Virus record (IMG/VR): IMGVR_UViG_3300042563_002443
Origin: a virus
Direction: 5' to 3' (one strand)
Length of the DNA: 64,000 nt
Positions 8,901 to 63,085 of the stretch are shown in pieces; the first letter of the stretch is position 1; each line of letters starts with the position of its first letter. The notes beneath the pieces are model-generated. The model was given only the letters and a program-made list of their open reading frames with translations. It was not told the origin of the DNA and ran no database searches. Position numbers and translations under genes: made by a program.

Positions 8901-8918
8901 CAATAAAAGAAAAATAAT

Positions 8919-9707
8919 ATGCCAAACATACCATTATCATCAGGCGAAACTTTTGTATTATCCAAAAAAAACAACGTTGCATATATTAAATCATCAACTG
9001 ATTCTGCAGAACAAAATTTGTTTATAAGAAATGATATACAATTAACCGGTTCAGCTGGCGCGGGAACTACTATTTTCAACACTGGTTATATTGAATTAAC
9101 AAACACAAACGCCGGTTCAGACTCATATATTGTGTTTAAGCCTAGCACTGTAGCCCTACAAAATTTTGTGTTAGGATATGACGATAGCCAAAACCGATTT
9201 GCTTTAGGTACCGGCAATACTCTAGCTAGCACAACCGCCACCCGGGTAGTATTCCATGTTCATTCAGGTTCGCGCATATTACATGTAAATGAAGGATTAA
9301 CGGTTACCGGTAGCATTAATGTTAGTAGTAGTGGCGACATTAATTCTGGCATTGTAAATAATAATTTTGTTTTTTACAATACTAGTGACTCCAATTTAAC
9401 AGTCGATGCTGCTGTAACTCAATCATTAGCATGGGTGGTTGAGTTTACAGCAGATAGAGCGTTATTTATTACTAACTTAACAAAGGGAAGAAAGTTTGAA
9501 GCCTATATTCAAAACACCAACGCAGCATCACGCACAATAACATTTAGTGGAAGTGCCGGAACTGCCGGAGGTGTAGGGTTAGCATTAGCAAAATACACCG
9601 GAGCTTGGGGCAGTTCAAAAACTATTGATGCAGATTATGGCGCAGCTTATATTCATGTACAAAACTTTGGCACTGCCACTAATTCAATTTTTGGTTCAAT
9701 AACATAA
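8919..9707 (+). CDS. Tail fibre-associated structural protein
   Basis: Beta-rich G/S/T composition; directly follows the fibre-like gene. Confidence 0.5.
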   Translation: MPNIPLSSGETFVLSKKNNVAYIKSSTDSAEQNLFIRNDIQLTGSAGAGTTIFNTGYIELTNTNAGSDSYIVFKPSTVALQNFVLGYDDSQNRFALGTGNTLASTTATRVVFHVHSGSRILHVNEGLTVTGSINVSSSGDINSGIVNNNFVFYNTSDSNLTVDAAVTQSLAWVVEFTADRALFITNLTKGRKFEAYIQNTNAASRTITFSGSAGTAGGVGLALAKYTGAWGSSKTIDADYGAAYIHVQNFGTATNSIFGSIT

Positions 9708-19559: not shown

Positions 19560-20189
19560 ATGTCAAAACAACTAATATTAGAATATATACCATTTAAGCC
19601 ATTTGAGTCATTATCAGAATCTTCTGGTGCTGCATATGGTGTACCTGGGGGTGTTGTTGTACAAGGTGTTTTACAAAGAGCAGGCGCAAAAAATCAAAAT
19701 GGTAGAATATATCCTAGAACAATTTTAGAACGAGAATGCAACCGATATCAACAAGAATATATAGATCAACATAGGGCATTAGGTGAATTAGATCACCCAG
19801 AATCATCCGTAGTTAATTTAAACAATGTTTCACACAATGTTTTAAAGATATGGTGGAAAGGCGATGATTTATGCGGAGCAGTACAAATCTTAGAAACACC
19901 AAGTGGTAAAATTCTTAAAGAACTTTTTAAAGCTGGAATAACATTGGGTATTTCTAGTAGAGGTCTAGGCTCAGTTAAAGAACTGCGTAGTGAAGGCACC
20001 GTTGAAGTACAAGAAGACTTTGAATTAATATGTTGGGACTTCGTATCTAATCCATCAACCCAAGGCGCTTTTATGCGTCCTACGCACATGAACGAATCGG
20101 TAGGTAAACAATCTACCGCAAATAAATATAATAAAGTAAACAGTATCATTACATCGATTTTATGTGATGACGGTAAATGCAGGATATAA
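19560..20189 (+). CDS. Prohead core protease (gp21-like)
   Basis: NQNGRIYP, ALGELDHP, GISSRGLGS, WDFVSNPST. Confidence 0.93.
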   Translation: MSKQLILEYIPFKPFESLSESSGAAYGVPGGVVVQGVLQRAGAKNQNGRIYPRTILERECNRYQQEYIDQHRALGELDHPESSVVNLNNVSHNVLKIWWKGDDLCGAVQILETPSGKILKELFKAGITLGISSRGLGSVKELRSEGTVEVQEDFELICWDFVSNPSTQGAFMRPTHMNESVGKQSTANKYNKVNSIITSILCDDGKCRI

Positions 20190-20190
20190 T

Positions 20191-20568
20191 ATGAACTCAC
20201 CAAATTTAAAAAGAATTTTAGAAATGATCACTGAAGATCAACCACAGCCATTAACTAAACAAGAAAAACAAGAATTTACAAATCAAGTTAAACGGTTTAG
20301 TGAAATGAATCAATCAGTTTACGGAAATGGTGATCTTCAATCTTTAACGGATCGTGTTAAAGACATGATCAACAAAGCTGAACAAATTACAACAGAAGCT
20401 GGAGATTGGTTTGATAATGTAACAATTAAACGTCACATGAAAAACTTGAATGATTCATATCGTGTATTTGAATCAACAGCAAAAGAAATGAGCCAGCTGC
20501 AACAACGTTTAAGTGCAGCTTATGAAGATATTGCACAAGGATTAAATAAATATTTTGATGTTAATTAA
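20191..20568 (+). CDS. Hypothetical helical protein
   Basis: Start 20191 (MNSPNLKRILE), immediately after the protease stop. Confidence 0.6.
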   Translation: MNSPNLKRILEMITEDQPQPLTKQEKQEFTNQVKRFSEMNQSVYGNGDLQSLTDRVKDMINKAEQITTEAGDWFDNVTIKRHMKNLNDSYRVFESTAKEMSQLQQRLSAAYEDIAQGLNKYFDVN

Positions 20569-21620: not shown

Positions 21621-21866
21621 ATGAGTAAAAAACAAAAACAACATCAAGCAATTGTCCCAGGCAATACATTAGCAGTAAAAGTTACCGGATCATCGCGAGA
21701 AGATTTAGCATATGCCCTTAAAGCATGGAAACGCAAAATAAAATCATCGGGAATTTTAGAAGAAGTAAAAGAACGAAAAGAATTTATTAAGCCTAGCGTC
21801 AAAAAAAGAAAACAATTACAAAATGCAAAATTTATGCAAATGGTAAGAGATTTACACGCAAATTAA
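21621..21866 (+). CDS. rpsU: Phage-encoded ribosomal protein bS21
   Basis: VKV...LAYALKAWKRKIKSSGILEEVKERKEFIKPSVKKRK matches the bS21 pattern. Confidence 0.88.
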   Translation: MSKKQKQHQAIVPGNTLAVKVTGSSREDLAYALKAWKRKIKSSGILEEVKERKEFIKPSVKKRKQLQNAKFMQMVRDLHAN

Positions 21867-22053: not shown

Positions 22054-23040
22054 ATGGCAAAATCAGATTTGCTAAAAGAAGCAATTGCCGACGCTCGTGC
22101 TGTTAAAGAAACTGCATTAGCAAACGCAAAAATTGCTTTACAAGAAGCATTCGCTCCCCGCTTAGAAAGAATGTTAGCTACAAAACTAACAAATGAAATT
22201 GAGGGTGAAGAAGAATTGCAAGAACCAAATTTGGATGATATGGGTGACGATGTCCCTGTAGAAGACGAAACAACAGACGGTGCTGTTGATTGGGTTGACA
22301 ATGATATTTCATTCTCAGTAGGTGGAAACACTTATGATGCTGAGATTGATAATTCAATGGAAGACGAACCAGTTGCAGAACCAGAAATGGGTGGTGAAGA
22401 AGAAGCACCAATGTCAAATGACGAAATGTCAGACGAGTACAATGAAAACTATGAGATGGATGAAGATCTAAATCTTGAAGCAATCATTCGCGAGTTAGAA
22501 GGCGATTTAGACGAACCAGAAATGGAAGAACCAGAAATGGAAGAGCCAATGATGGAAGGCGAGGAATATGCTGAAGAAGACGATTCGGATATGAACATTG
22601 ATGAAATCATTGAATCGATCCTACGTGAAGAAGAAGAAGATGTGCCTGCAGCAAAAGCAGACGATGAAGTTGAAGCAGTAAAAGAAGAATTGGAAGAAGC
22701 TTATAATACAGTTCGTCAATTGAAATCTATTATCAACGAAGTTAATCTTTTAAATGCAAAACTTCTTTACACAAACAAATTGTTTCGCAATTTTGAATTG
22801 TCAGAAAATCAAAAAATGAAAGTAATTGAAAATTTTGATAGAGCTGGTAATACAAGAGAAGTGAAATTAGTATTTAGTACGTTAGCTGAATCATTTAAAC
22901 GTCCAACAACAAAGAAACGTGTAGTTAAGGAATCATATGCATCTAAACCAGTTGCAACAACGGCTCCTAAATCTACAAATATTATTAATGAAGGATTTGA
23001 CCAAGCAGAACGATGGAAAAAATTAGCAGGATTGCTATAA
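22054..23040 (+). CDS. Prohead core scaffolding protein (gp22-like)
   Basis: Highly acidic, directly upstream of the capsid gene; C-terminal NEVNLLNAKLLY...WKKLAGL; SD AAGGAG. Confidence 0.8.
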   Translation: MAKSDLLKEAIADARAVKETALANAKIALQEAFAPRLERMLATKLTNEIEGEEELQEPNLDDMGDDVPVEDETTDGAVDWVDNDISFSVGGNTYDAEIDNSMEDEPVAEPEMGGEEEAPMSNDEMSDEYNENYEMDEDLNLEAIIRELEGDLDEPEMEEPEMEEPMMEGEEYAEEDDSDMNIDEIIESILREEEEDVPAAKADDEVEAVKEELEEAYNTVRQLKSIINEVNLLNAKLLYTNKLFRNFELSENQKMKVIENFDRAGNTREVKLVFSTLAESFKRPTTKKRVVKESYASKPVATTAPKSTNIINEGFDQAERWKKLAGLL

Positions 23041-23068: not shown

Positions 23069-24730
23069 ATGAGTATTTCAAATTTATTACAAACTAACGA
23101 TTTCGTTCAAAGAAACAATGCTAAATTAGCAGTTTCTAAATGGGAGAAGACAGGTTTGTTAGAAGGTCTTAGAACCGAAACAGAAAAAGCCGGTATGGCT
23201 CAATTGCTTGAGAACCAAGCAAGACAACTAGTAAAAGAAGCATCATCTACAGGAACAACTGCAGGATCAGAAGAATGGGCAGGAGTTGCTCTTCCATTGG
23301 TTCGTCGTATTTTTGCTGAATTTGCTGCAAAAGAATTCGTATCAGTTCAACCAATGAACTTGCCATCAGGTCTAGTATTTTACTTAGACTTTAAATATGG
23401 TACAGCTCAACCAGGATTTGATAATGACAACAACAGCAGATCAGGTGATCCATTTGGTTCTCCTAACGCTGACGATTCATTGTTTGGTGTAACAAGCACA
23501 ACGTTGGATCCATCAGGTGGTTTATATGGCGCAGGCCGATTTGGTTATTCAATCAATGAAACTTCAAGTGTAGTATTAGCAACAACGGCATCTGCCGCAA
23601 CTGCTGGTTCAGGATCTGTTAACTTTGATGCTAGCTATACAGGAACATTGTCAGGTTACAGCGTTGTTTATGTAGCAGCAACCGCTTTATCAAGCTCTGA
23701 TTTAACTGCAGTAAGATCATTTGTATTAACATCTGGTTCAAATATTACAGCAGCAATGAACGTTCCTGCATTTACAAAATACAATGCATCATCAGGTAAT
23801 GTTGAATTCTTTATTTCAAAATCAGCAGGGATGAATGGTACAACAGGATATACTGTATCGTATAGCAAACAACCGCTTGATTATGCTAGAGGTGATTTTG
23901 AAGACAACAAAGGATCAGCAGGCGCAGGAACATCAGGCTTGAATGCTGATATTGACATTCCAGAAATCAACTTGGAAATGCAATCAGATCCAATCGTTGC
24001 CAAGACTCGTAAGTTGAAAGCAGTTTGGACTCCAGAATTTGCTCAAGATTTAAATGCTTACCATTCAATTGATGCTGAAGCTGAATTAACTTCAATGTTG
24101 TCTGAGTATGTATCCATGGAAATCGATTTAGAGATCTTAGATATGTTAATCTCTGCAGCACCAACAACTGAATATTGGTCAGCATTGAACAACAACTTCT
24201 TCAACTCAGCAACTAACACATTCGTTCAATCGGGCGCAGGTGCAGCAACATCTTTAGGTGATGGATATTACAACACACAAGGTGGTTGGTTTCAAACATT
24301 AGGTACAAAACTTCAAAAAGTATCTAATAAGATTCACCAAAAAACTTTAAGAGGTGGTGCGAACTTCTTAGTAACTAGTCCAGCAGTAGCAACAATCCTT
24401 GAGTCTATCCCAGGATTTGCAGCTGAAACAGATGGCACTAAGATGGAATTTGCAGCAGGTGTACAAAAAATTGGTGCAATTAATAACCGATACACTGTAT
24501 ACAAAAACCCATACATGACAGAAAACATAATCTTAATGGGATTCAGAGGAGCACAGTTCTTAGAAACAGGAGCAGTATTTAGTCCTTATATTCCATTAAT
24601 TATGACTCCGTTAGTATACGATCCAGTTAACTTCACTCCACGTAAAGGTGTTATGACACGTTACGCGAAGAAAGTAGTTCGTCCAGAATTCTACGGAAAA
24701 GTATATGTTCATGGTTTAAATGCAATTTAA
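23069..24730 (+). CDS. Major capsid protein (gp23-like)
   Basis: LLENQ, LPLVRR, VQPMNLPSGLVF, AKTRKLKAVWTPEFAQDLNAYHSIDAEAEL, PYIPL, GVMTRY. Confidence 0.96.
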   Translation: MSISNLLQTNDFVQRNNAKLAVSKWEKTGLLEGLRTETEKAGMAQLLENQARQLVKEASSTGTTAGSEEWAGVALPLVRRIFAEFAAKEFVSVQPMNLPSGLVFYLDFKYGTAQPGFDNDNNSRSGDPFGSPNADDSLFGVTSTTLDPSGGLYGAGRFGYSINETSSVVLATTASAATAGSGSVNFDASYTGTLSGYSVVYVAATALSSSDLTAVRSFVLTSGSNITAAMNVPAFTKYNASSGNVEFFISKSAGMNGTTGYTVSYSKQPLDYARGDFEDNKGSAGAGTSGLNADIDIPEINLEMQSDPIVAKTRKLKAVWTPEFAQDLNAYHSIDAEAELTSMLSEYVSMEIDLEILDMLISAAPTTEYWSALNNNFFNSATNTFVQSGAGAATSLGDGYYNTQGGWFQTLGTKLQKVSNKIHQKTLRGGANFLVTSPAVATILESIPGFAAETDGTKMEFAAGVQKIGAINNRYTVYKNPYMTENIILMGFRGAQFLETGAVFSPYIPLIMTPLVYDPVNFTPRKGVMTRYAKKVVRPEFYGKVYVHGLNAI

Positions 24731-50943: not shown

Positions 50944-52266
50944 ATGATAGTGGACTCAGAATCGGAATTGAATACATTATTCACATACATAAAAGGACGA
51001 AAAACTTTGCTAGTTCCAATATTAGCAGATCCACTTCTCCATGCCGCTGTGAATAAAGTAACATGTATATATGTATACACTGAAGATGCAATAGAACGCA
51101 TTGTGCCTATTCAACATACTGAACAGCTAAGGGGCTTTACTGAACATCTACAACAATTCATGGATCTGACTGATATCTTTGTATATGACAAAAAACAATG
51201 GCTTCAAATAGGAGGAAACAATGCTGTATGGGATGTTAAAACATTGTGGTGGTACACATATAATGAAGCATATGACGAAACTCATTATTATACACCAGCA
51301 CATCAATTTTATTGGAGACGGCACACCGCACTTCCAAATATAAATGCACTTATTCCAATAATGCAACATTTGGCAATGTGTCAAAAAATTAGAAAATATG
51401 CTTGGCCAATGTGTGTGAATTCAAAATTAACTCAATCATATTTGCAATTCAATTCAACATACCCGGAAACATTTGCAGCAATTGAGCGTAATGGATTACA
51501 AGTTAATGAAACATTTAAAATGCCTGAACTAGTTAAAGATAATCTGGTTTATTCGCAGTACAATTATTATACAATGACAGGTCGTCCTAGCAATGCATAT
51601 CGAGGATTTAACTTTGCTGCAATGAACAAAGAAGATGGCACAAGAACAGCCTTTTGTAGCAGGTTTGAAAATGGAGCATTAGTTGAAATGGATTTTGATT
51701 CATATCATGTTAGATTGATTGCTCGATTGATTGGGTATGATTTGCCGACATCATCAATACATGATTATTTAGGCCGATTTTATTTTGGTGTAACCGAACT
51801 AACTGAAGAACAACGTGCGGAAAGCAAACAAATAACATTTCGATTGCTGTATGGAGGCATTGACTCAGAATTTTTATCAATTCCATTTTTTGAAAAGGTA
51901 AATGCATTTGTATATGATCTTTGGGCTAAATGGAAAGCAAAAGGACGCATTGACACGCCCATATTGAAACGACCTATTACCAAGGATATGGTAAAAAATA
52001 TGACTGCAAACAAATTGTTTAATTACTATTTGCAAGCCGTTGAAACAGAAGTATCAGTTCAAAAAATACAACAAGTACAATCATTATTAAAGACCCATGA
52101 AACGGTTATAATTTTATATACGTATGACAGTATTTTATTTGATGTGCCAGTAACTGAAGCAAAAGCGTTATTGCCTCAAATCAAACACGTGTTAGAACAA
52201 GGCAACTTTCCCACGAAAGTGAAGTGTGGGAATATTTATAATAAATTAAACACAATATCTTTATGA
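50944..52266 (+). CDS. Divergent, short family A DNA polymerase
   Basis: TGRPSN, motif A DFDSYHVRL, motif B ESKQITFRLLYG, motif C YTYDSILFD. Confidence 0.8.
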   Translation: MIVDSESELNTLFTYIKGRKTLLVPILADPLLHAAVNKVTCIYVYTEDAIERIVPIQHTEQLRGFTEHLQQFMDLTDIFVYDKKQWLQIGGNNAVWDVKTLWWYTYNEAYDETHYYTPAHQFYWRRHTALPNINALIPIMQHLAMCQKIRKYAWPMCVNSKLTQSYLQFNSTYPETFAAIERNGLQVNETFKMPELVKDNLVYSQYNYYTMTGRPSNAYRGFNFAAMNKEDGTRTAFCSRFENGALVEMDFDSYHVRLIARLIGYDLPTSSIHDYLGRFYFGVTELTEEQRAESKQITFRLLYGGIDSEFLSIPFFEKVNAFVYDLWAKWKAKGRIDTPILKRPITKDMVKNMTANKLFNYYLQAVETEVSVQKIQQVQSLLKTHETVIILYTYDSILFDVPVTEAKALLPQIKHVLEQGNFPTKVKCGNIYNKLNTISL

Positions 52267-53474
52267 ACATTGATTCAATATTAACAGAATGGAGTTACAG
52301 ATTACCTAGCGGGTATCCAACTCGCGCACAAGATTATGAAGTATTATATGATGTTTTAATTGAAACTGCAAAAATAACACCTACCGAAGCCCGGCAAATT
52401 GTAGAACGAGCAAAAGGCACTGTTATTAATTCTATTAATGAAGCAATCAAAATAGATTCTATAGAAAATCAACTTTTACTAAAAGCAGTAAGTGATGTTA
52501 ATAAAGTTGAAGATTTAACAAAATTTTTAAGTTTGTTACCGTTAGAAGCCGAAATGGTAACTTTACAATTTTTAAATAATTTATCAAATGAACAATCGCA
52601 ACAATTTGCAAATTTATTATATTCTGAAACTGAGGTTAGTGAAGAATTATTAAATTCATTTAATTTTAAATCAGGAATATACGGCGAAATATTTCGATTA
52701 CATAAACCTGGCTTAGGAAAAGGTGAAATACTTTTAGCAACACTTGTTCGAGATTCATATATACAAGGCGGCACCGTCTCATATGATTTAAATGTTAATG
52801 GTAAAAAGTATGAAGTAAAAGATTACAGTAATCCAGATAAACCTAATGCATCAATTCGTTTAGGAACAAAAGGTACAGTAACAAGATTCCGATTTTGGGA
52901 TGAAATTACAACAACATTTCAACGATTATCACAATTGCGAGGTATAGATACACCTAAATTTGATTTAGATAAACTATTGCCAGAACCATTATTAAATGCA
53001 ATTTACTATTTAGAACGCCGAAGAGATGTTATTCTTGCCGGAAATTTAGGTATAAAAGATAAGCAATATTTAGAACAATTTTATCAAGAAGCAAATAAAT
53101 TACAATCTGAAATTAAAGGTTATACCAATGTAATTTTAAGAGGTCCAAATGCAATTCCAATTGAAATGTCAATTGAACCTATTAGTGATGCTAATGGCGA
53201 CTCTTTTGTAATTCGCCCTATACGAGATACAAGTCAAAATTTAACATATGTTAATACAGAATTACGACGATTAAAATATGTTAGAAATCCATTAGATTTA
53301 AATAAAGATATGCAAGAAGCAGTTACAACTATTATCAACGATGTAACGTTTATCATATTCCGTAGAGATCGTACAAACGTAACACAAGATGTCCGCTATG
53401 CAGCAACTGATGCCGGCAAGATACGTATTATAGAAAAAGATATAACTCCATCAACAGACGAATTTGAAGTATAA
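52263..53474 (+). CDS. Putative PD-(D/E)xK nuclease-like protein
   Basis: GKGEILL...SYDL....KYEVKD motif; late-type motif upstream; ILTE|W leader. Confidence 0.5.
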   Translation: MNIDSILTEWSYRLPSGYPTRAQDYEVLYDVLIETAKITPTEARQIVERAKGTVINSINEAIKIDSIENQLLLKAVSDVNKVEDLTKFLSLLPLEAEMVTLQFLNNLSNEQSQQFANLLYSETEVSEELLNSFNFKSGIYGEIFRLHKPGLGKGEILLATLVRDSYIQGGTVSYDLNVNGKKYEVKDYSNPDKPNASIRLGTKGTVTRFRFWDEITTTFQRLSQLRGIDTPKFDLDKLLPEPLLNAIYYLERRRDVILAGNLGIKDKQYLEQFYQEANKLQSEIKGYTNVILRGPNAIPIEMSIEPISDANGDSFVIRPIRDTSQNLTYVNTELRRLKYVRNPLDLNKDMQEAVTTIINDVTFIIFRRDRTNVTQDVRYAATDAGKIRIIEKDITPSTDEFEV

Positions 53475-53483
53475 GGACATGAA

Positions 53484-53867
53484 TTGAAAACACAATTACT
53501 TTGCACATTTGCACATAGATCAGACTTAAACATTGTATCAGATTACATACAACAAAGCTACGTCATACCAGAACAACGAATATTTGTGTTTGCAAATGCT
53601 GATGCTGGAGATAATTTGTATTGTACATATAATGCAGATGCAGGAACACGCAGAGGTCAAAATACAATAAGCATTCATCGTAAAAAAGAAACCAATACAC
53701 TGTATACTGTTAATGCACTCAATCAAATTATAAAGGCAGTTAATAACGGCGTAATAGACAAAACATTTCAACTCGATTGGAGCATTTATCAAAATTCATT
53801 TATACTTACAGACGAGGCAGGATATCGAGTGATTGATTTGATATTCTTCAAGAAAATAACGTGGTAA
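53484..53867 (+). CDS. Hypothetical protein
   Basis: TTG start with SD; QLLCTF...HRKKETNTLYTVNALN. Confidence 0.7.
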   Translation: MKTQLLCTFAHRSDLNIVSDYIQQSYVIPEQRIFVFANADAGDNLYCTYNADAGTRRGQNTISIHRKKETNTLYTVNALNQIIKAVNNGVIDKTFQLDWSIYQNSFILTDEAGYRVIDLIFFKKITW

Positions 53868-53891
53868 CAATATTTATATATAAAAAACATC

Positions 53892-54323
53892 ATGATAAAA
53901 CTAAAAGATTTATACACAAAAAATTTAACAGAGGCAGAAATGCCAGATACAGAAAAACTTGGTAGAAACAATCCTGATTGGATTAATTTGGTTTCTAAAT
54001 TAAAAACTCTTTCTTATTCACCAAGAATATTAACATTTATGGACTTTGATGGTATCCCATCTCAAAGTTTGAATTGGGGAACTACTAAATCTGCTCGAGG
54101 TAAATACGGGTTTGCACTTGCATCAACCTCTCCAAACTTACCTAAAGAACGTATGGATTTATTTAACACTGAAGATAAAGAAAATCAAATAGAGATGATC
54201 AATTGGTGGAAAAGCCGCGGATATCAAATAGATAATAGATCTGAAATTTCAATAAACTTTAAAGATGCAAACAACTTAAGAAATGATATTGAATCATTTT
54301 TTAAAATTTATCCGCCAGAATAG
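53892..54323 (+). CDS. Hypothetical protein with MIKLK leader
   Basis: MIKLKDLYTKNLTE|AE; late-type motif at 53870. Confidence 0.65.
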   Translation: MIKLKDLYTKNLTEAEMPDTEKLGRNNPDWINLVSKLKTLSYSPRILTFMDFDGIPSQSLNWGTTKSARGKYGFALASTSPNLPKERMDLFNTEDKENQIEMINWWKSRGYQIDNRSEISINFKDANNLRNDIESFFKIYPPE

Positions 54324-54330
54324 GAACATC

Positions 54331-54990
54331 ATGATAAAATTAAAAACATTATTAGATGAATCATTTGGTGGCATGCTAGCAGCTGCAATTAGAGCAAACA
54401 ACGCAATAACGCCACATAAAAACAAATTTAAAGTTGATCCTAAACAGGTAAAAGTTGGCGATGAATTAGAGTGGTATGGCAAGGATAAAGATCCTAGAGT
54501 AACTGGTACAATTTCAAAGATTGACTCTAAAGGCATAGAGATTACTAATCTTAAGGCAGTAGGTACTAAGAAGATGGATTATGGCCTTAAAGGAGTCACA
54601 ATCAACGCTAATACAAAGTATTTTTATTTTGGTTCCTACAACAAAATGTTAAATCATTGGAAACTTAAAGACTCACAAGATACAGATCAAAACAATAATG
54701 GTTATCCAGATTCAACGGAAGGATCCTCAAATAATGAATTTACAGCATTGTTATCATCGTTAGAGTCTGATTTAAAGGCATATAATGGTGAAGAAATAAC
54801 ATATGAAGACGATGACGAAACAATGGAAATAACTGTAAGCATTTATCCAAGTGAACTCAAAAAAGAAATTGTCCAAGCCATTAACGTTATACTAAAAAAA
54901 CATCCATTATTTGAGATAGACAAAGACACTATTGATCGATATCGAGATGAAGACGGCGTTACTTTAACATTTGATATCATTAAAAAATAA
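54331..54990 (+). CDS. Hypothetical protein with MIKLK leader
   Basis: Start 54331, MIKLKTLLDE|SF; SH3-like VKVGD segment; DTDQNNNGYPD. Confidence 0.65.
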   Translation: MIKLKTLLDESFGGMLAAAIRANNAITPHKNKFKVDPKQVKVGDELEWYGKDKDPRVTGTISKIDSKGIEITNLKAVGTKKMDYGLKGVTINANTKYFYFGSYNKMLNHWKLKDSQDTDQNNNGYPDSTEGSSNNEFTALLSSLESDLKAYNGEEITYEDDDETMEITVSIYPSELKKEIVQAINVILKKHPLFEIDKDTIDRYRDEDGVTLTFDIIKK

Positions 54991-55013
54991 ACAAAAAAAA
55001 CTTAACCAATTAC

Positions 55014-55042
55014 TTTGAATTAACCCATTTATTAATTATAAT
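55014..55042 (+). promoter_or_regulatory. TTKGA-N18-TATAWT promoter-like element
   Basis: TTTGA 55014 and TATAAT 55037-55042. Confidence 0.6.
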
Positions 55043-55090
55043 TAATAAGTAAACAGAATATATTATTAACAACTTAACAAAAGGCAAAAA

Positions 55091-55852
55091 ATGGCTTTAA
55101 ATTTAGACGCTATCAAAGCGAAGCTCAACCAGCTGAATAAGCAGGATGACAAAAAACAAAATTTGTGGAAACCTGAAACAGGCAAAACTCGTATTAGGAT
55201 CGTTCCTTATATACACCGCAAAGACAATCCGTTCTTAGAATTGTATTTTCATTATGACATTAGCAAAAGATCTATGCTATCTCCGATTTCATTCGGTAAT
55301 GCAGATCCAATTGTAGAGTTTGCAGAAAAACTAAAAAAGACGGGTGACAAAGACGAATGGTTAATGGGTCGCAAGATTGAACCAAAAATGCGTACATATG
55401 TTCCCGTAATTGTTCGTGGTAAAGAATCCGAAGGAGTTAAATTTTGGGGATTCGGCAAACAAATTTACACGGAATTATTAAGCATTGTTTCAGATCCAGA
55501 TTATGGTGACATTACAGACTTGATGAATGGACGTGATATTGATGTTGAATTTACTCCAGCAGAAGGTGCAAATTTTCCAAAAACAACAATTCGTGTTAAG
55601 CCTGCAACTAGTGCAGCAACGGAAGACAAAGAAATTGCAACAAAAATCATGACTCAACCAGAGATTACAGATTTATTTCCTGAACCAACTTATGAAGAAC
55701 TAGAAACAGCTCTTAAAGAATGGATGAATCCTGAAAATGCAGACGCAGATGTTGATTCTGAAGAAGCACCAGCAACTCCAACTAAAACCGCAAAACCAAT
55801 TGCTGGTAAAGTAGAGGATGTTGCATCAGCATTTAACGATCTATTTAATTAA
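55091..55852 (+). CDS. Single-stranded DNA-binding protein (gp32-like)
   Basis: WKP..GK..IRIVP, FWGFGK, DITD...GRD; acidic tail ending FNDLFN. Confidence 0.82.
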   Translation: MALNLDAIKAKLNQLNKQDDKKQNLWKPETGKTRIRIVPYIHRKDNPFLELYFHYDISKRSMLSPISFGNADPIVEFAEKLKKTGDKDEWLMGRKIEPKMRTYVPVIVRGKESEGVKFWGFGKQIYTELLSIVSDPDYGDITDLMNGRDIDVEFTPAEGANFPKTTIRVKPATSAATEDKEIATKIMTQPEITDLFPEPTYEELETALKEWMNPENADADVDSEEAPATPTKTAKPIAGKVEDVASAFNDLFN

Positions 55853-55862
55853 GGAGTAACAA

Positions 55863-57026
55863 ATGGCAAAGAGCAAAAGCAAGTCAGAACTGGAAGACAG
55901 TTTAGCAAATACCCTAGCAGAAAGCATTAACAAGCAATTTAAAGGGCAGGCATTAAAAACTGCATTCTTTTTAGATGGTGATGATGATTCACCCAGCAAT
56001 GTTAAAGAATGGATATCATCGGGATGCTCAATGCTCGATTTAGCAATTTCAAACCGTCCATATGGTGGATTTCCTGTTGGACGGATTACTGAAATTACCG
56101 GATTAGAAGCATCTGGTAAATCATTATTAGCAGCACACACTTTAGCAGAAACGCAAAAGAAAGGTGGATTGGCTGTATATATTGATACTGAGTCGGCTAC
56201 TAGTTCCGAATTTTTATCAGCAATTGGTGTTGATTTAAAAACCATGTTGTATGTTCCATTAGAAACAATTGAAGAAATATTTGAAACCATTGAAACAATT
56301 GTTGAAGGTGTACGCAAATCAGACAAAGACCGTTTAGTTACAATTGTAGTAGACTCAATTATGGGTGCATCCACAAAAATTGAAATGTCAGCTGAATATG
56401 ATAAAGATGGATATGCAACCAGCAAATCTATTATTTTATCAAAGGCAATGCGTAAAGTTACCAATTGGATTGCACGTGAACGAATTTGTTTGATATTTAC
56501 CAATCAATTACGTGTCAAAATGGGCGTATCATTTGGTGATGCTTGGACAACGTCGGGTGGTAAAGCAATTCCATTCCATGCATCGGTTCGTCTTCGTCTT
56601 AAAAATACGGGGCAAATCAAAGCAAAGGTAAATGGAGCTGAACAAATTGTAGGAAGCAAAACAAATGTGCAAGTAGTTAAAAACCGAATGGGGCCTCCAC
56701 ATCGTAAAATAGATTATGAAATTTATTATGATAGTGGAATTGATAATTGGGGCGGATGGCTAGGCGTAATGAAAACATTTGATATAGTTGCACAATCAGG
56801 TGCATGGTATACAATGCAAGATGTAGATCATGAAACTGGAGAAACCTTTGGAGACGTTAAATTCCAAAGCAAAGATTTCATTGAAAAGGTAATCAACAAC
56901 CCGGAAATGAAAGACAGGTTATATAAAAGAATTTGCGATGCTTACATATTCAAATATCAAGCAGGTGTCGATGGTGGAATTGATGATGTTATCATTGTCA
57001 ATGAAGTAATTGATGAAGAAGGATAA
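55863..57026 (+). CDS. recA: RecA/UvsX recombinase
   Basis: GRITEITGLEASGKS, YIDTE, VVDS, FTNQLR, TSGGKAIPFHASVRL, KNRMGPP. Confidence 0.93.
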   Translation: MAKSKSKSELEDSLANTLAESINKQFKGQALKTAFFLDGDDDSPSNVKEWISSGCSMLDLAISNRPYGGFPVGRITEITGLEASGKSLLAAHTLAETQKKGGLAVYIDTESATSSEFLSAIGVDLKTMLYVPLETIEEIFETIETIVEGVRKSDKDRLVTIVVDSIMGASTKIEMSAEYDKDGYATSKSIILSKAMRKVTNWIARERICLIFTNQLRVKMGVSFGDAWTTSGGKAIPFHASVRLRLKNTGQIKAKVNGAEQIVGSKTNVQVVKNRMGPPHRKIDYEIYYDSGIDNWGGWLGVMKTFDIVAQSGAWYTMQDVDHETGETFGDVKFQSKDFIEKVINNPEMKDRLYKRICDAYIFKYQAGVDGGIDDVIIVNEVIDEEG

Positions 57027-58090
57027 TGAACAAGTTTCAAAAATTATTTAACGAGTTACAACAAGAAAGAAGTTTAGGTCCATCAAACGTCAATGATCAT
57101 CTCATGGTGTTTGATGGCTTAAACACCTTTATAAGAAGTTTTGGTGCTACTCCGGCATATAACGAAGATGGTGATCACGTAGGTGGTATTTCCGGATTCT
57201 TGTATTCAGTCGGCAAAACAATCAGAGACTTTAAACCTACTCGATGCATCATTGTGTTTGATGGTCGAGGCGGCTCGGCAAAAAGAAAACGAATTTATAA
57301 AGATTATAAAGGGAACCGAGCAAACAAAACCAAGTTGCGCAGACACGATCATCATGAGTCAACATTGGAACAAGAACAAGAATCAATGCGACATCAATTT
57401 AGTCGATTGATTTCATATCTAGATAATTTGCCTGTTACATTCATTTCAATGGATGGAATTGAAGCAGATGATACAATTGCATATATTGCTCAAATGTATG
57501 AAGACACTTGCAAAAAAATGACAATTGTTTCTACGGATAGAGATTTTTATCAACTAGTAGATGATCGAATTCAAGTTTGGTCTCCAATTAAAAAGAAAAT
57601 GTATTCGGTTGATACTGTAATAGAAGAGTTTGGTGTTCATCCAAACAATATGGTTGTGTATCGATCATTTACAGGCGATGCGTCAGATAATATTCCTGGA
57701 GTTAATGGTATAGGACCAAAAACCATTTTAAAAGTAATTCCACAACTAGTAGAATCTACGGAATATACATTGGATAATTTATTTGCATTAAGCACTGAAT
57801 CAGTATCTGCAAAGTCACCTAATTACAAAACATTTACAAAAATATTAGAAAATTCACATACGCTAAAACAAAATTGTGAATTAATGAATATTAAATTGTT
57901 GGACATTCCTGCGCAGACCGCCACAAAAATACGTGGGATAATGGAACAACCAATACCTGAATTAAATAGGGCAGAATTCCAACGCATGTTTTATGAAGAT
58001 AAGCTGTGGGCAATAATGAAAAATGTTCCTGAATGGATAACTAATACCTGGTTATCGTTAAATGCATTTGCAAAACAAACGCACAAATAA
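57026..58090 (+). CDS. 5'-3' exonuclease / flap endonuclease (PolI N-terminal or RNase H-like)
   Basis: DGLN, VFDG, YKGNR, EADD, STDRD, GDASDNIPGVNGIGPKT. Confidence 0.92.
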   Translation: MNKFQKLFNELQQERSLGPSNVNDHLMVFDGLNTFIRSFGATPAYNEDGDHVGGISGFLYSVGKTIRDFKPTRCIIVFDGRGGSAKRKRIYKDYKGNRANKTKLRRHDHHESTLEQEQESMRHQFSRLISYLDNLPVTFISMDGIEADDTIAYIAQMYEDTCKKMTIVSTDRDFYQLVDDRIQVWSPIKKKMYSVDTVIEEFGVHPNNMVVYRSFTGDASDNIPGVNGIGPKTILKVIPQLVESTEYTLDNLFALSTESVSAKSPNYKTFTKILENSHTLKQNCELMNIKLLDIPAQTATKIRGIMEQPIPELNRAEFQRMFYEDKLWAIMKNVPEWITNTWLSLNAFAKQTHK

Positions 58091-58091
58091 A

Positions 58092-58120
58092 TTTGAATTT
58101 ACAGTAATTTTACTTATAAT
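58092..58120 (+). promoter_or_regulatory. TTKGA-N18-TATAWT promoter-like element (leaderless helicase mRNA)
   Basis: TTTGA 58092 and TATAAT 58115-58120; ATG 6 nt later. Confidence 0.6.
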
Positions 58121-58126
58121 TGTTAT

Positions 58127-59482
58127 ATGACAGATAAATTATCGGACTACGGTTGGGGCTTTCAAGTTAAAGTTCTTGCTGCTATGTTTACGGATAGACT
58201 ATTTTTACAGCAAATTTCAGATATTATACGTGCTGAATATTTTGAGTCTGATGCAAACAGTTGGTTATTAGATATCATATTAACACATTTCCGAGAATAT
58301 AAAACACCGCCTAGCAAAGATGTTTTAAAAGTAAAAATAACGGAAATTGAAAATGACATATTAAAGGCAACCGTATTAGAACAATTGAAAGATGTGTTCA
58401 GATATATGGAGTCAGATGACTTGACATTTGTAAAAGATGAAATTTTAAAATTTTGCAAGAATCAGGAAATTAAACAAGCTATAATGGATTCGGTTAGTTT
58501 GTTAAAACATGGAAATTTTGACGAAATAAAAAGCAAAATTGATAGTGCCATGAAAGCTGGCGCCGATACCAATATTGGATTAGAATATGTAACGGATGTT
58601 GCTGCACGATACAATGAAGCAGCACGACATACAATAACAACCGGTTGGGATGTAATTGATGATTTGATGGATGGTGGACTAGCCCCAGGAGAATTAGGAG
58701 TTGTAATGGCACCTGCGGGAATTGGTAAATCTTGGCTTCTTATCAATATTGGAGCAAATGCAGTAAAAGACGGAAAAACAGTTATACATTATACATTGGA
58801 ACTCAATGAAAATTATGTAGGCCAACGCTATGATTCAGTATTTACAGGAATTCCAGCACAAAATTTAAAAAATTATCGAGACGACATTGAAGCAAAAATG
58901 CTAACACTTAAAGGCGATTTAATTGTAAAATATTTTCCTACCAAATCAGTAGGAGTAATGGGCTTAAAGGCTCATATAGAAAAAACAATAATGCTCGGCA
59001 AAAAACCAGATCTGGTAATTGTGGATTATGGTGATTTGCTTAAAGTTAACATTAAAAAGGACAAGCACGAAGCCTTAGAGGACTTGTACGAAGAATTACG
59101 TGGTATGGCAGGGGAATATGAAATTCCAGTATGGACCGCATCACAAGCAGGAAGAAGCGCCTTAGAAGAGGATATTATTGAAGCAGACAAAATTGCATCA
59201 TCATATGGAAAAGTAATGGTTGCTGACTTTTTAATGTCGCTTTCTAGAAAGGTAGAAGACAAAATGTCAGGAACGGGTAGAGGTCACGTTATTAAAAATA
59301 GATTTGGACCAGATGGCATAACATTGCCATGCAAAATTAATACAAATAATGGACAATTTCAATTCTTTGAACCACAAACTCAACAAGGAAAACAAACCAC
59401 ACAAATCATGAAAACAGGAGAAAACATGGTCAAGAAAAATTTAGCACAAAAGTTCAAAGATTTAGGCGGAACTTTAGGATAA
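58127..59482 (+). CDS. dnaB: Replicative DnaB/gp41-like helicase
   Basis: APAGIGKS, YTLEL, IVDYGD, WTASQ, KNRFG. Confidence 0.92.
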   Translation: MTDKLSDYGWGFQVKVLAAMFTDRLFLQQISDIIRAEYFESDANSWLLDIILTHFREYKTPPSKDVLKVKITEIENDILKATVLEQLKDVFRYMESDDLTFVKDEILKFCKNQEIKQAIMDSVSLLKHGNFDEIKSKIDSAMKAGADTNIGLEYVTDVAARYNEAARHTITTGWDVIDDLMDGGLAPGELGVVMAPAGIGKSWLLINIGANAVKDGKTVIHYTLELNENYVGQRYDSVFTGIPAQNLKNYRDDIEAKMLTLKGDLIVKYFPTKSVGVMGLKAHIEKTIMLGKKPDLVIVDYGDLLKVNIKKDKHEALEDLYEELRGMAGEYEIPVWTASQAGRSALEEDIIEADKIASSYGKVMVADFLMSLSRKVEDKMSGTGRGHVIKNRFGPDGITLPCKINTNNGQFQFFEPQTQQGKQTTQIMKTGENMVKKNLAQKFKDLGGTLG

Positions 59483-59501
59483 AAACATATTTATATAAAA
59501 T

Positions 59502-59532
59502 GGGTTAGGAAAGTGATTTCCGCCCTTTTTTT
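59502..59532 (+). terminator. Terminator/attenuator-like hairpin between helicase and nrdJ
   Basis: GGG-TTA-GGAAA-GTGA-TTTCC-G-CCC followed by T7. Confidence 0.6.
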
Positions 59533-59574
59533 ATCTAAAATCATTTACATATACAAACAAGGAGATTACGAACA

Positions 59575-61431
59575 ATGGACATTTCAAACAAAATTTTAAG
59601 TGAAATTACGGTATACATGAAGTATGCAAAATATCTTCCAAACCTCAATAGAAGAGAATCTTGGGAAGAACTAGTTACAAGAAACAAACAAATGCATATT
59701 AAAAAATATCCGGCGTTAGTTGATGAAATCAATGCCGCATATGAATTTGTATATGCAAAAAAAGTATTGCCATCAATGCGTAGTTTGCAATTTGGTGGGA
59801 AATCAATTGATATATCACCCAACCGAATTTACAATTGTGCATATTTGCCAATTGATGACCACCGTGCATTTGGAGAAGCAATGTTTCTTTTATTAGGAGG
59901 CACGGGTGTTGGATATTCGGTTCAAAAACATCATGTAGAATTATTACCAGAAATACATAAACCAAATCCAAAAAAGATGCGTCGTTATTTGATTGCAGAT
60001 TCAATTGAAGGATGGGCCGATGCAGTTAAGATGCTTGTTAAATCATATTTTGTTGGCGGATCATCTTACAATTTTGATTTTTCAGATATTCGTGCCAAAG
60101 GTGCAAGACTTGTTACTTCAGGAGGAAAGGCTCCAGGACCTCAACCATTAAAAGAATGTTTGATGAAACTGCAAGGAATTTTAGATACAAAAGAAGATGG
60201 CGACAAATTATCTCCAATTGAAGTTCATGATATGGTTTGCCATGTTGCAGATGCAGTATTAGCAGGTGGTATTCGTAGAGCAGCACTTATAGCATTATTT
60301 TCAGCAGATGATGAAGAAATGATTGCATGCAAATCAGGTAATTGGTGGGAAATCAATCCACAAAGAGGTCGTGCTAATAATTCAGCTACATTAATGAGAC
60401 ACAAATTAACAAAAGAATTCTTTATGGATCTTTGGAAGCGTGTTGAATTATCTGGAGCAGGAGAACCTGGTATATATCTTACAAATGATAAAGATTGGGG
60501 AACTAACCCATGTTGTGAAATTGCATTACGTCCATTTCAATTCTGTAACTTGTGTGAAGTAAATGCATCTGACATTGATTCTCAAGAAGATTTTGAAAAT
60601 CGAGTTAGAGCAGCAGCATTTATTGGAACATTGCAAGCAGGATATACCAACTTTCATTACCTACGTCCAATTTGGCAACGTACAACTGAAAAAGATGCAC
60701 TTATTGGAGTATCAATGACAGGCATTGGATCTGGAACAGTATTGGGATATGACATGAAAGCTGCAGCAAAAACGGTTAAAACGGAAAATGAAAGAGTTGC
60801 TGCACTTATTGGTATTAATCGATCCGCACGAACAACCACAGTAAAGCCTGCAGGAACAACATCATTAACATTAGGCACAAGTTCAGGAATACATGCTTGG
60901 CACAATGATTATTATATTCGTAGAATCCGTGTTGGAAAAAATGAAGCAATTTACACGTATTTAGCAAAAAATCATCCCGAGCTAATTGAAGATGAATATT
61001 TCCGTCCACACGACACGGCAGTAATTTCTATACCACAACAGGCACCAGAAGGAGCAATTATGAGATTCGAGTCACCATTTCAATTATTAGATCGAATCAA
61101 AAAAGTTCATTTAGAATGGGTGAAGCCAGGTCATAGATCAGGAAACAATACACACAATGTATCGGCAACAGTTTCATTGAAAGATGATGAATGGGAATTA
61201 GCAGGTGATTGGATGTGGAACAATAGAGATCATTATAACGGCCTATCAGTTTTACCATATAATGGCGGAACCTATATTCAAGCCCCATTTGAAGATTGCA
61301 CCAAAGAAACATATGAATCAATGATGAAATCTTTGAAGGGTATTGATTTGAGTCAAGTAATTGAATTGGATGATAATACAGACCTATCAGGCGAATTGGC
61401 TTGTGCAGGCGGAGCGTGTGAGATTAAATAA
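59575..61431 (+). CDS. nrdJ: Class II (adenosylcobalamin-dependent) ribonucleotide reductase
   Basis: PSMRSLQ, YNCAY, GGIRRAA, TNPCCEI, TVKPAGT, terminal CAGGACE; no beta-subunit gene adjacent. Confidence 0.9.
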   Translation: MDISNKILSEITVYMKYAKYLPNLNRRESWEELVTRNKQMHIKKYPALVDEINAAYEFVYAKKVLPSMRSLQFGGKSIDISPNRIYNCAYLPIDDHRAFGEAMFLLLGGTGVGYSVQKHHVELLPEIHKPNPKKMRRYLIADSIEGWADAVKMLVKSYFVGGSSYNFDFSDIRAKGARLVTSGGKAPGPQPLKECLMKLQGILDTKEDGDKLSPIEVHDMVCHVADAVLAGGIRRAALIALFSADDEEMIACKSGNWWEINPQRGRANNSATLMRHKLTKEFFMDLWKRVELSGAGEPGIYLTNDKDWGTNPCCEIALRPFQFCNLCEVNASDIDSQEDFENRVRAAAFIGTLQAGYTNFHYLRPIWQRTTEKDALIGVSMTGIGSGTVLGYDMKAAAKTVKTENERVAALIGINRSARTTTVKPAGTTSLTLGTSSGIHAWHNDYYIRRIRVGKNEAIYTYLAKNHPELIEDEYFRPHDTAVISIPQQAPEGAIMRFESPFQLLDRIKKVHLEWVKPGHRSGNNTHNVSATVSLKDDEWELAGDWMWNNRDHYNGLSVLPYNGGTYIQAPFEDCTKETYESMMKSLKGIDLSQVIELDDNTDLSGELACAGGACEIK

Positions 61432-61652
61432 TGATACAACCAGCATCAAAAGATTGGATACAACAAACCTTTGTAAGGGAGTTTGGAAACAAGCTCCTGG
61501 CTACGGACTTTTACTATAATGAAGACGGATATCGTGTAATGACTGAATCATATCATGTACGACGCGGATCATGTTGTGGTAATGGTTGTTTGCATTGTCC
61601 ATACACGCCAAAACATGAGACCAATAATACCAAGTTGAATAATATTTATTAA
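61431..61652 (+). CDS. Small Cys-rich protein (DUF5522-like)
   Basis: RGSCCGNGCLHCPY. Confidence 0.7.
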   Translation: MIQPASKDWIQQTFVREFGNKLLATDFYYNEDGYRVMTESYHVRRGSCCGNGCLHCPYTPKHETNNTKLNNIY

Positions 61653-61653
61653 T

Positions 61654-62334
61654 ATGATTAAACTAAAAAATTTATTATTAGAAGTACATATTGATAACAA
61701 ATTCCAACGTGAATTAATTGATAGGATAAATGATGAGTATAGGGAAGATTACAAATCATTAACACCACAAGAAATTAACGATGGTTATTGTGATATGTGG
61801 GCTTCATTGTTTGTGGATCGTTTTGGCGGAGATCATCAATGGTCTTTTGATTTTCCAAATGATCCAAATGGACATTCGTGGGTAAAATTAAATAATAAAT
61901 TTTATGATGCTGAAATGACTACGGGTACAACAAAATTAATAAATTTGCCGCATTTTCAACGAGCTATAAAAAAATATGGCACTGATTGGTTAGATACTAA
62001 ATTCTTTAATAATATTCAAAAAACAAAATATGATGCATCAAATATCAATAAAATTGAGGAAATAGGACCTCAAAATTTTATTGAGATGTATTTGGATTGG
62101 CTAGAAGAGTTATTAAATGATTTAGAAGATTCTAATGATATTGAAGCCATTAAACGGTACGATACAGTATTAAATGCTAGGTTTGCATTAGAAGATGCTG
62201 ATTCTACGGAAATTATACAATATCTACAACGAAAATATGGCAATGATGTCGATCAGATAATATTAAAAATAATCGGCGATACAACAAAATATGATGCATC
62301 AGGCATTGATACACCTGGCAATCCTAACATGTAA
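61654..62334 (+). CDS. Two-module protein with MIKLK leader and putative Cys-His-Asp (papain/transglutaminase-like) domain
   Basis: MIKLKNLLLE|; GYC...GHSW...FYDAE; KYDAS repeat closes each module. Confidence 0.55.
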   Translation: MIKLKNLLLEVHIDNKFQRELIDRINDEYREDYKSLTPQEINDGYCDMWASLFVDRFGGDHQWSFDFPNDPNGHSWVKLNNKFYDAEMTTGTTKLINLPHFQRAIKKYGTDWLDTKFFNNIQKTKYDASNINKIEEIGPQNFIEMYLDWLEELLNDLEDSNDIEAIKRYDTVLNARFALEDADSTEIIQYLQRKYGNDVDQIILKIIGDTTKYDASGIDTPGNPNM

Positions 62335-62350
62335 TAAGTTTGCATAAAAC

Positions 62351-62379
62351 TTTGAAATTCCAATAAAATATATTATATT
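62351..62379 (+). promoter_or_regulatory. TTKGA-N18-TATAWT promoter-like element
   Basis: TTTGA 62351 and TATATT 62374-62379, upstream of folE. Confidence 0.6.
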
Positions 62380-62395
62380 AATATAAGAACAAGTT

Positions 62396-63085
62396 ATGAC
62401 AAGAAAACATCTAGAAACAGTTGCCCCTGGATATGCGAACGGTATATCATTGCAATTAGCAGTAAAGCAAACTTTAGAAGGTCCTGACGCTCAATTAACT
62501 CAGCAAGAAAAACAACAAATAATTGATAACGCTGCATATCATTACGGTTTATTTTTAACGGCACTAGGAGTATCTTGGGAATCAGATCCAAATTCATCTA
62601 ATACTCCTAATCGAGTTGCAAAAGCATATGTAAACGATTTATGGAAAGGCAGATATGAACCAATGTCAGACATTACTTCATTTCCAAGTGATGGGTATGA
62701 CGGAATTGTATTCGAAGGCGGTATTCCATTAACATCAATGTGTAGCCATCATCACCAAACCATTTCCGGAAAAGTTCATGTTGCATATATTCCAGCAGAA
62801 AATGGAAATGTAGTTGGATTAAGTAAAATTAATCGAGTAGTAGAACATTTCGGCAGACGCGGAGCTATACAAGAACAATTAACTGTAGCAATACAACATG
62901 CAATTGATGAACTTATAGAAGATAACAAAGGTGTTGCTGTAATGATTGAAGCAACTCATAATTGTGTATCTTGTAGGGGAGTAAAACATATAGGCGCTTC
63001 AATGAAGACCGCAAAATTATCCGGAGCCTTTTTAGATGATGGAAATGCTAGGTCTGAATTTTATCAATTTGTAAAAGGTTATTAA
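62396..63085 (+). CDS. folE: GTP cyclohydrolase I
   Basis: TPNRVAK, SMCSHH, GLSKINR, IQEQLT, HNCVSCRGV. Confidence 0.95.
   Translation: MTRKHLETVAPGYANGISLQLAVKQTLEGPDAQLTQQEKQQIIDNAAYHYGLFLTALGVSWESDPNSSNTPNRVAKAYVNDLWKGRYEPMSDITSFPSDGYDGIVFEGGIPLTSMCSHHHQTISGKVHVAYIPAENGNVVGLSKINRVVEHFGRRGAIQEQLTVAIQHAIDELIEDNKGVAVMIEATHNCVSCRGVKHIGASMKTAKLSGAFLDDGNARSEFYQFVKGY

Follow-up and report, generated by a model that had tools for sequence, protein, structure and literature searches.

Bacteriophage T4 packages the ADP-ribosyltransferase Alt, and T4 workers reportedly proposed that the capsid targeting sequence (CTS) of this phage lets T4-like phages package varied proteins. The T4 CTS reads MKTYQEFIAE (PMC8442874), and its first 10 residues suffice for packaging, with residues 4 and 7 involved in targeting and residues 8 and 10 in cleavage by gp21, which carries LIE-9 near its own N-terminus (PMC9026906); the internal proteins of T-even phages are highly diverse and have only the signal in common (PMC3012670). 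In phiKZ, 201phi2-1, and SPN3US, ejection and inner-body proteins carry propeptides whose processing has been mapped by mass spectrometry and for which a targeting role has been proposed (PMC5694885). We analyzed a 64,000-nucleotide stretch of DNA from an uncultured T4-like phage (IMG/VR record IMGVR_UViG_3300042563_002443, hereafter the window), in which three unrelated proteins begin with a leader of the form MIKLKxLLxE. Judged from its distribution across phage sequences, this leader is probably a cleavable prohead-targeting propeptide on a hypervariable set of cargo proteins, and we propose it as a functional counterpart of the T4 CTS among T4-like phages of a distant branch from fresh and marine waters.

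Like the T4 CTS, the leader is an N-terminal tag of about 10 residues that is hydrophobic at positions 4, 7, and 8 and ends in Glu at position 10, and it heads proteins that are otherwise unrelated and lie in polymorphic loci. The phage of the window has a protease of the gp21 family, a scaffold resembling gp22, and a capsid protein resembling gp23; LILE at residues 5 to 8 of its protease (gene start 19560) is analogous to LIE-9 of gp21, and an Alt-like ADP-ribosyltransferase domain occurs among the cargoes. Having the same length and pattern, the leader is therefore like the T4 signal in every feature tested, without being a sequence relative of it. The lineage itself is distant, its capsid protein being ~34% identical to those of T4-type jumbo phages in our search, and it differs from T4 in the presence of PolA and of a bS21 gene in the head module. 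T4 has a few small basic proteins as cargo, whereas the cargo repertoire here is far larger and mostly enzymatic or without known function; further, several leader types coexist across lineages.

The propeptides of the giant phages resemble the leader in that head-internal cargo is cut by a gp21-related protease at x-x-Glu and paralogues have conserved N-termini, but they are mostly at least 100 residues long with (S/A/G)xE sites, whereas the tag here has 10 residues with Leu/Ile at position 8. The PeSL (promoter-early stem-loop) cassettes of T4-type phages, reportedly described by Arbiol et al. in 2010, are said to be DNA-level elements with an early promoter and stem-loop boundaries. They are likewise said to be small accessory genes with repeated boundaries shuffled among related T4-type genomes, but the common element here is a translated peptide, apparently under protein-level selection, behind a late-type motif. 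As with the cargo-loading peptides of encapsulins, a short disordered terminal peptide would here load unrelated enzymes into an HK97-fold shell; the encapsulin peptides, however, are usually C-terminal, remain uncleaved, and attach directly to the shell protein, in a system without a viral genome or ejection.

The initial annotation had noticed three unrelated proteins that open with MIKLK, and a scan of all six frames together with position-matrix scores confirmed them, with exactly three MIKLK strings in the window, each at the start of an open reading frame (ORF):

53892–54323, plus strand: leader-cargo gene 1, 143 aa, starting MIKLKDLYTKNLTE, with a 14-residue leader, MIKLKDL..NLTE (12.4 bits)
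54331–54990, plus strand: leader-cargo gene 2, 219 aa, with the leader MIKLKTLLDE (19.0 bits)
61654–62334, plus strand: leader-cargo gene 3, 226 aa, with the leader MIKLKNLLLE (25.4 bits)

The scores are from a leader position matrix built from IMG/VR instances independent of the window, by which the best of the 1,614 other Met-started peptides (1,617 including the three leaders) reached 6.1 bits. In 53892, the LxE site is displaced to residues 12 to 14 (LTE). The DNA said to be shared by the first two genes was recovered as the 15-mer AACATCATGATAAAA, exact around both start codons (53886–53900 and 54325–54339). The early (L/I)xE sites of the protease, the scaffold, 18874, and 52263, which had been grouped with the leaders, did not hold up as a related set: these N-termini fall outside the leader family by the position matrix, and an early [LI]xE site, present in 12 of 58 window ORFs versus 13% of internal 14-residue windows, is found in 9 of 55 ORFs, near chance, when the three leaders are left out.

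We searched IMG/VR with the degenerate DNA pattern M-I-K-(L/F)-K-x-Φ-Φ-x-E and obtained at least 158 sites in at least 119 stretches; the counts that follow refer to the matches listed. Complete ORFs of at least 60 aa without an upstream in-frame ATG begin at 132 of the 158 listed sites, and behind the leader lie at least 116 mutually dissimilar cargoes with a mean column identity of 6%. Leader genes often stand 2–5 in tandem, near-complete genomes hold 1–8 canonical copies against zero matches to a reversed control pattern, and relatives reached through the cargo proteins contained more ORFs with the leader or with its MIRLK and MIRLR variants. Because the pattern fixed positions 4 and 10 through the codons YTN and GAR, these two are informative only as a choice among allowed residues. 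Position 8 is L in 106, I in 28, M in 7, and V in 5 of 146 instances, though the pattern permitted Val codons, and position 7 is L in 79, I in 58, and F in 6, within the residues that the pattern permitted; K/R and L/I/F exchanges occur in the leader. Codon choice within the leader equals background synonymous usage in these 146 instances (Ile2 codons ATT/ATA/ATC at 54/40/6% versus a background of 45/43/12%, and the Glu10 codon GAA at 81% versus 79%), and selection therefore appears to act on the peptide. Together with the dominance of Leu and Ile at pattern-free positions, this codon usage argues against a purely nucleotide-level element, and the comparison supports a genuine N-terminal module, conserved as protein, in front of unrelated cargo. 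No paper describing it was found, a literature search for MIKLK returning only unrelated vaccine-design papers.

Different cargoes also carry a longer version of the leader with 22 residues, MIKLKxILAENMRRFGTKNLSE, which contains two LxE sites in succession (L012 at 2164 and 2863, L017 at 1952, L016 at 8851, L137 at 185, and L139; labels of this kind are our own for contigs). Two head-module cargo families and an extended 24-residue leader had no tblastn match in cultured phages. The cultured Microcystis phage Mel-JY01 encodes three paralogous leader proteins (L152 4277–6719, equal to PP395634 60276–62718; gene starts 60276, 60923, and 62056), with the leaders MIKLKSLLQE, MIKLKSLLKE, and MIKLMSLVTE, each followed by ISDRVWH.T, and has an 18-codon leader remnant at 62733. 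The literature search found no paper on this phage, and a suspected membership of its VWHLT family in the ADP-ribosyltransferases was dropped as Pfam gave no match.

Among the at least 116 cargoes, 22 Pfam families were identified (E ≤0.001), the commonest in only 4 cargoes. They include zeta-toxin/AAA_33 kinases, ADP-ribosyltransferase, RNase T-type exonuclease, cell-wall hydrolase, and Mom, as well as NUDIX, HD, NT5C, SprT, and OmpA. In the structural model of 61654, the leader is disordered (pLDDT 40) and the N-domain is confidently folded (pLDDT ~90), with Cys46, His74, and Asp85 nearly invariant in 33 homologues; the top Foldseek rows were MepS/Spr and other NlpC/P60 peptidases, all weak (E ~0.1, TM 0.25–0.29), and the C-terminal module gave only generic helical-bundle rows (Z ≤6) in a wide VIA fold search. 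A conserved 'GRNNP' domain follows the leader of 53892, whose model has residues 1–20 disordered (pLDDT <50) and a well-folded α/β domain (pTM 0.74); the fold search gave no clear match for it, one weak double-wing/MotA-like row being a lead only. The cargo of 53892 and 54331 matched no Pfam or PHROG family, and a protein atlas search gave no usable lead on the cargo and nothing informative for 54331.

Comparison of relatives supports hypervariability of the cargo loci between near-identical flanks. At the locus from o52263/o53484 to the SSB gene, the flanks are 97–100% identical at the protein level and the leader ORF content differs, with ORFs of 143 and 219 aa in the window, 147 aa in L017, 111, 112, and 229 aa in L012, 131 and 69 aa in L014, and 83 aa in G001. 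The two modules of 54331, A (~residues 11–125) and, after a linker, B (~131–219), are separate ORFs with a leader each in relatives L012–L016. The protein of 61654 combines a Cys-His-Asp, putatively papain-like domain (residues 11–122) with a helical module (residues 129–210), and the latter sits between exact 19-bp repeats (62022–62040 and 62283–62301) and is free-standing in L008 at 8904–9233 with its own leader, MIRLKNLLLE. Across these splits and fusions, free modules are therefore always tagged and fused modules lose the inner tag. A second G001 ORF (MIRLRHILKE, 150 aa) was rejected as a split-off C-module of 61654, its BLASTP similarity being limited to the leader and the C-terminal tail. 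At the NrdJ/DUF5522 locus, different cassettes were seen to have the leader and a C-terminal tail, TKYDxSGIDTPGxPxM, in common (L022 11113–11991, corresponding to G001 71113–71991; L008 8904–9233; window 62283–62334), and the coding ends of these cassettes are therefore conserved on both sides; in L008 a cassette separates nrdJ from the DUF5522 gene, a place where the window has none.

Leaders also differ among lineages in front of the same cargo. Homologues of the 53892 domain carry at least 5 unrelated leader types, each ending in [LIV]xE, and some have longer leaders of the MKKIVRLTESDL...INEQ type. An orthologous P-loop kinase has a different leader in each lineage, always with Glu directly before an invariant Gly:

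Uncultured phages: MIKFKKFMTE or MIKLKDILNE
Pelagibacter phage HTVC008M: MIPFILKE
Methylophilales phage Melnitz: MKTFAELQE, T4-like
Ralstonia phage RsoM2USA: MTTFKEYLLE, T4-like

Agrobacterium phage Atu_ph07 encodes a gp21 homologue, and its gp53 contains the kinase domain internally, after ..VTE|G. Predicted at 87 kDa, gp53 was detected among the virion proteins by 31 unique peptides (45.5% coverage) and peaks in gel band 9, where proteins of ~21 kDa run (PMC6102473 Table S5); in this distant phage, these data fit packaging and processing. A run of T4-like leaders (MTTFKEYLLE, MNQTFKQFLTE, MKFSDYILE, and MRLKQFLME) was also seen in RsoM2USA ORF254–258 (L167), beside the large terminase gene ORF253, and ORF257 is among the virion protein bands assigned by the authors (PMC8504454).

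The contigs support a leader that travels with phages encoding an S77 (gp21-type) protease and clusters in their head modules. Among the matches listed, 38 leader-bearing contigs reach 30 kb; 21 of these encode the S77 protease (PF03420), including 5 of 5 that are at least 90% complete, and the 17 contigs without it are all fragments; cultured phage records, where gp23-like capsid genes occur in ~5% (2,494 of 50,697), give the scale for this count. The window, which is part of a genome and has 34% G+C, keeps the T4 head-gene order of portal, protease, scaffold, and major capsid protein:

14440: large terminase
16140: portal
19560–20189, plus strand: Peptidase_S77 prohead protease of the T4 gp21 type (Pfam PF03420, E 6.5e-32; phrog_207, E 1.2e-55), the presumed processing enzyme for the leader
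20167–20568, plus strand: conserved head-module gene (BLASTP against the head modules of relatives L153–L161)
22054–23040, plus strand: gp22-like scaffold (gene order; N-terminus ..LLKEAIADAK kept in nine relatives), the presumed docking partner of the leader
23069–24730, plus strand: gp23-like major capsid protein, aligning to mature T4 gp23*

The protease–scaffold interval is variable and full of leader ORFs in the nine relatives L153–L161, where orthologues of 20167–20568 start with a MIKLK, MIRLK, or MAKLK leader by BLASTP; the window copy retains only a degenerate NLKRILE. Just upstream of the gp23*-aligned start, the capsid protein has Q[LI][LIV]xE with A, S, or T as the next residue, conserved in nine relatives, and VKE|ASS at residues 55–57 of the window protein is a plausible candidate maturation site.

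Several other features were observed. A second leader family, MK(L/I)(T/S)KSQLKEIIKEE-like, occurs on several unrelated ORFs in the protease–scaffold interval of relatives (L155 10578–16275, L160 11471–14868, and L156 5748–6548). A homologue of ribosomal protein bS21 (phrog_21469, E 5e-6) is encoded at 21621–21866, between the protease and scaffold genes, and is kept in relatives. The scaffold contains an internal leader-like string, VRQLKSIINE (residues 220–229, 22711–22740; 9.4 bits by the leader matrix), which may be an internal protease site. By capsid protein, the nearest named phages are Microcystis phage Mel-JY01 and Flavobacterium phage immuto, each ~56% identical. The replication block from ~50.9 kb encodes PolA, SSB, a UvsX-like recombinase, a 5' nuclease, a helicase, NrdJ, FolE, and QueD, and region 53400–62400 had no megablast match among cultured phages.

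Two of the three leader genes in the window are directly preceded by a promoter-like motif:

53870–53877, plus strand: late-type promoter-like motif ATATTTAT, 14 nt upstream of the 53892 ATG
61642–61649, plus strand: late-type motif ATATTTAT, 4 nt upstream of the 61654 ATG

TATTTAT was identified within 35 nt upstream of 16 window ORFs, 13 of which lie in the virion-gene block with the motif at 14–26 nt (portal, adaptor, sheath, tube, and hub being those matched in PHROG), and in the replication block only 52263, 53892, and 61654 have it. Because the same motif precedes virion genes, it is of late type, not early, and at 53870 it would be predicted to act as a promoter; 54331 follows 53892 after a gap of 7 nt. 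The link between leader and late motif made in the initial annotation stands for 53892 and 61654, with 54331 in tandem, and is not supported as a general link for leader genes elsewhere (motif upstream in 21 of 146), most of which lie within operons. Its wider proposal of swappable cassettes, in which promoter plus leader would get any domain packaged, matured, and injected, is partly supported by comparison, in the unrelated hypervariable cargo, the protein-level leader, the link to the S77 protease and head module, and the T4 CTS layout, and not in the general late-motif link or the extra LxE sites. A close spacing of motif and ATG (4–10 nt) was also found in at least 12 IMG/VR leader genes and suggests leaderless or near-leaderless late transcripts for some cassettes. 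The late-motif gene at 52263–53474 was seen to have a conserved N-terminus (MNIDSILTEWSYRLP..GYPT) and a C-terminal part that is strongly divergent among relatives, the alignment being limited to residues 1–70 or 1–184 in L016 and L013.

If the leader is a prohead-targeting propeptide, its genes would be expressed late, either from a promoter of the ATATTTAT type or through transcription running on within late operons, and the flexible decapeptide would dock its protein on the scaffolding core via hydrophobic residues 4 and 7. The shell would then close round the core, the gp21-type S77 protease would cleave after Glu10, reading Leu/Ile at position 8, and the mature cargo would stay inside the head alongside the DNA, to be ejected at least in part into the next host. 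Cargo genes could be gained, lost, fused, and split freely because only the tag would be needed, and cargo entering another phage lineage would acquire that lineage's own tag. Delivery into the host as effectors is plausible, at somewhat less than even chances. We offer with similar reserve a broader reading, in which a limited number of address peptides, each specific to a lineage (MIKLKxLLxE, T4-like MKTFxEFxxE, and longer helical leaders), would direct into the head a very large pool of enzymes and inhibitors that phages exchange horizontally, to be injected with the DNA.

Several observations weigh against a prohead-targeting propeptide. MIKLKxLLxE has no sequence similarity to the T4 CTS beyond Met1, the hydrophobic pattern, and Glu10, and chance alone gives [LI]xE in 13% of 14-residue windows. 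The NUDIX, NT5C, HD, and Mom cargoes are everyday enzymes of the cytoplasm that would not obviously have to be packaged, and TATTTAT lies within 60 nt upstream of only 21 of 146 leader genes (14%) among the IMG/VR matches listed. Atu_ph07 is a distant phage in which the domain is internal and has no N-terminal MIKLK tag; tblastn and literature searches turned up no cultured phage that combines a MIKLK protein with a proteome, and Flavobacterium phage immuto, the closest named cultured relative, has the protease without the MIKLK leader.

An alternative close to this reading is that the tag does target the prohead core, with most tagged proteins being assembly-only accessories, like gp67 and gp68 of T4, that are degraded and expelled. 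Many tagged ORFs in the protease–scaffold interval are indeed small (61–150 aa) and of unknown function, one such family, 20167, being conserved in the head module; in T4, moreover, core proteins are cut to fragments that leave the head (PMC9026906). We nevertheless regard this as unlikely, given that folded enzyme domains are frequent among the cargoes (kinase, ADP-ribosyltransferase, nuclease, hydrolase, and candidate papain-like), that hypervariable loci between near-identical flanks are unusual for assembly parts, and that gp53 of Atu_ph07 stays in virions. A protein-level tag could also serve a purpose outside the head, such as docking in the tail lumen or baseplate, a degradation or timing signal, or a propeptide silencing toxic enzymes. 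The potentially toxic cargo (zeta-toxin-like kinase, nuclease, and ADP-ribosyltransferase) and the exposed, disordered leader in the models of 61654 and 53892 would suit such roles, but a decapeptide would hardly inhibit so many different folds, the tag is associated not with tail genes but with the S77 protease and the protease–scaffold interval, and its layout matches the T4 head-targeting signal, which makes a non-head function distinctly improbable.

The conserved start could instead be a DNA or RNA module, acting in translation initiation or as a PeSL-like block of recombination homology, with a functionless peptide. The 15-mer around the ATG of the tandem genes 53892 and 54331, the GGAACAT(C/T)ATG context retained by close relatives, chimeric proteins such as P0098 that change cargo just past the leader region, and the exact repeats at module junctions are all compatible with this. 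However, the background codon usage of the 146 instances with their retained conservative K/R and L/I/F replacements, the unrelated upstream regions in most instances, and the quite different peptides that other lineages have at the same place, all ending in [LIV]xE, make a nucleotide-level element very improbable.

If the leader is the propeptide that we consider probable, a 10-residue string would suffice to catalogue the proteins brought into the cell with the DNA of a large group of uncultured phages, and those proteins would be the earliest-acting factors of host takeover and anti-defence, most of them without a known family. This would extend short-tag protein packaging of the T4 kind, a principle itself already known, to distant lineages, and if the tag works as proposed, cargo would move between lineages by tag swapping and the tag would be an experimentally simple handle. 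Under the more tentative reading of lineage-specific address peptides, the leader would mark hundreds to thousands of unknown first-strike proteins of host takeover and anti-defence in metagenomes and would serve directly as a packaging tag for phages that infect Bacteroidota, cyanobacteria, and other non-model hosts.

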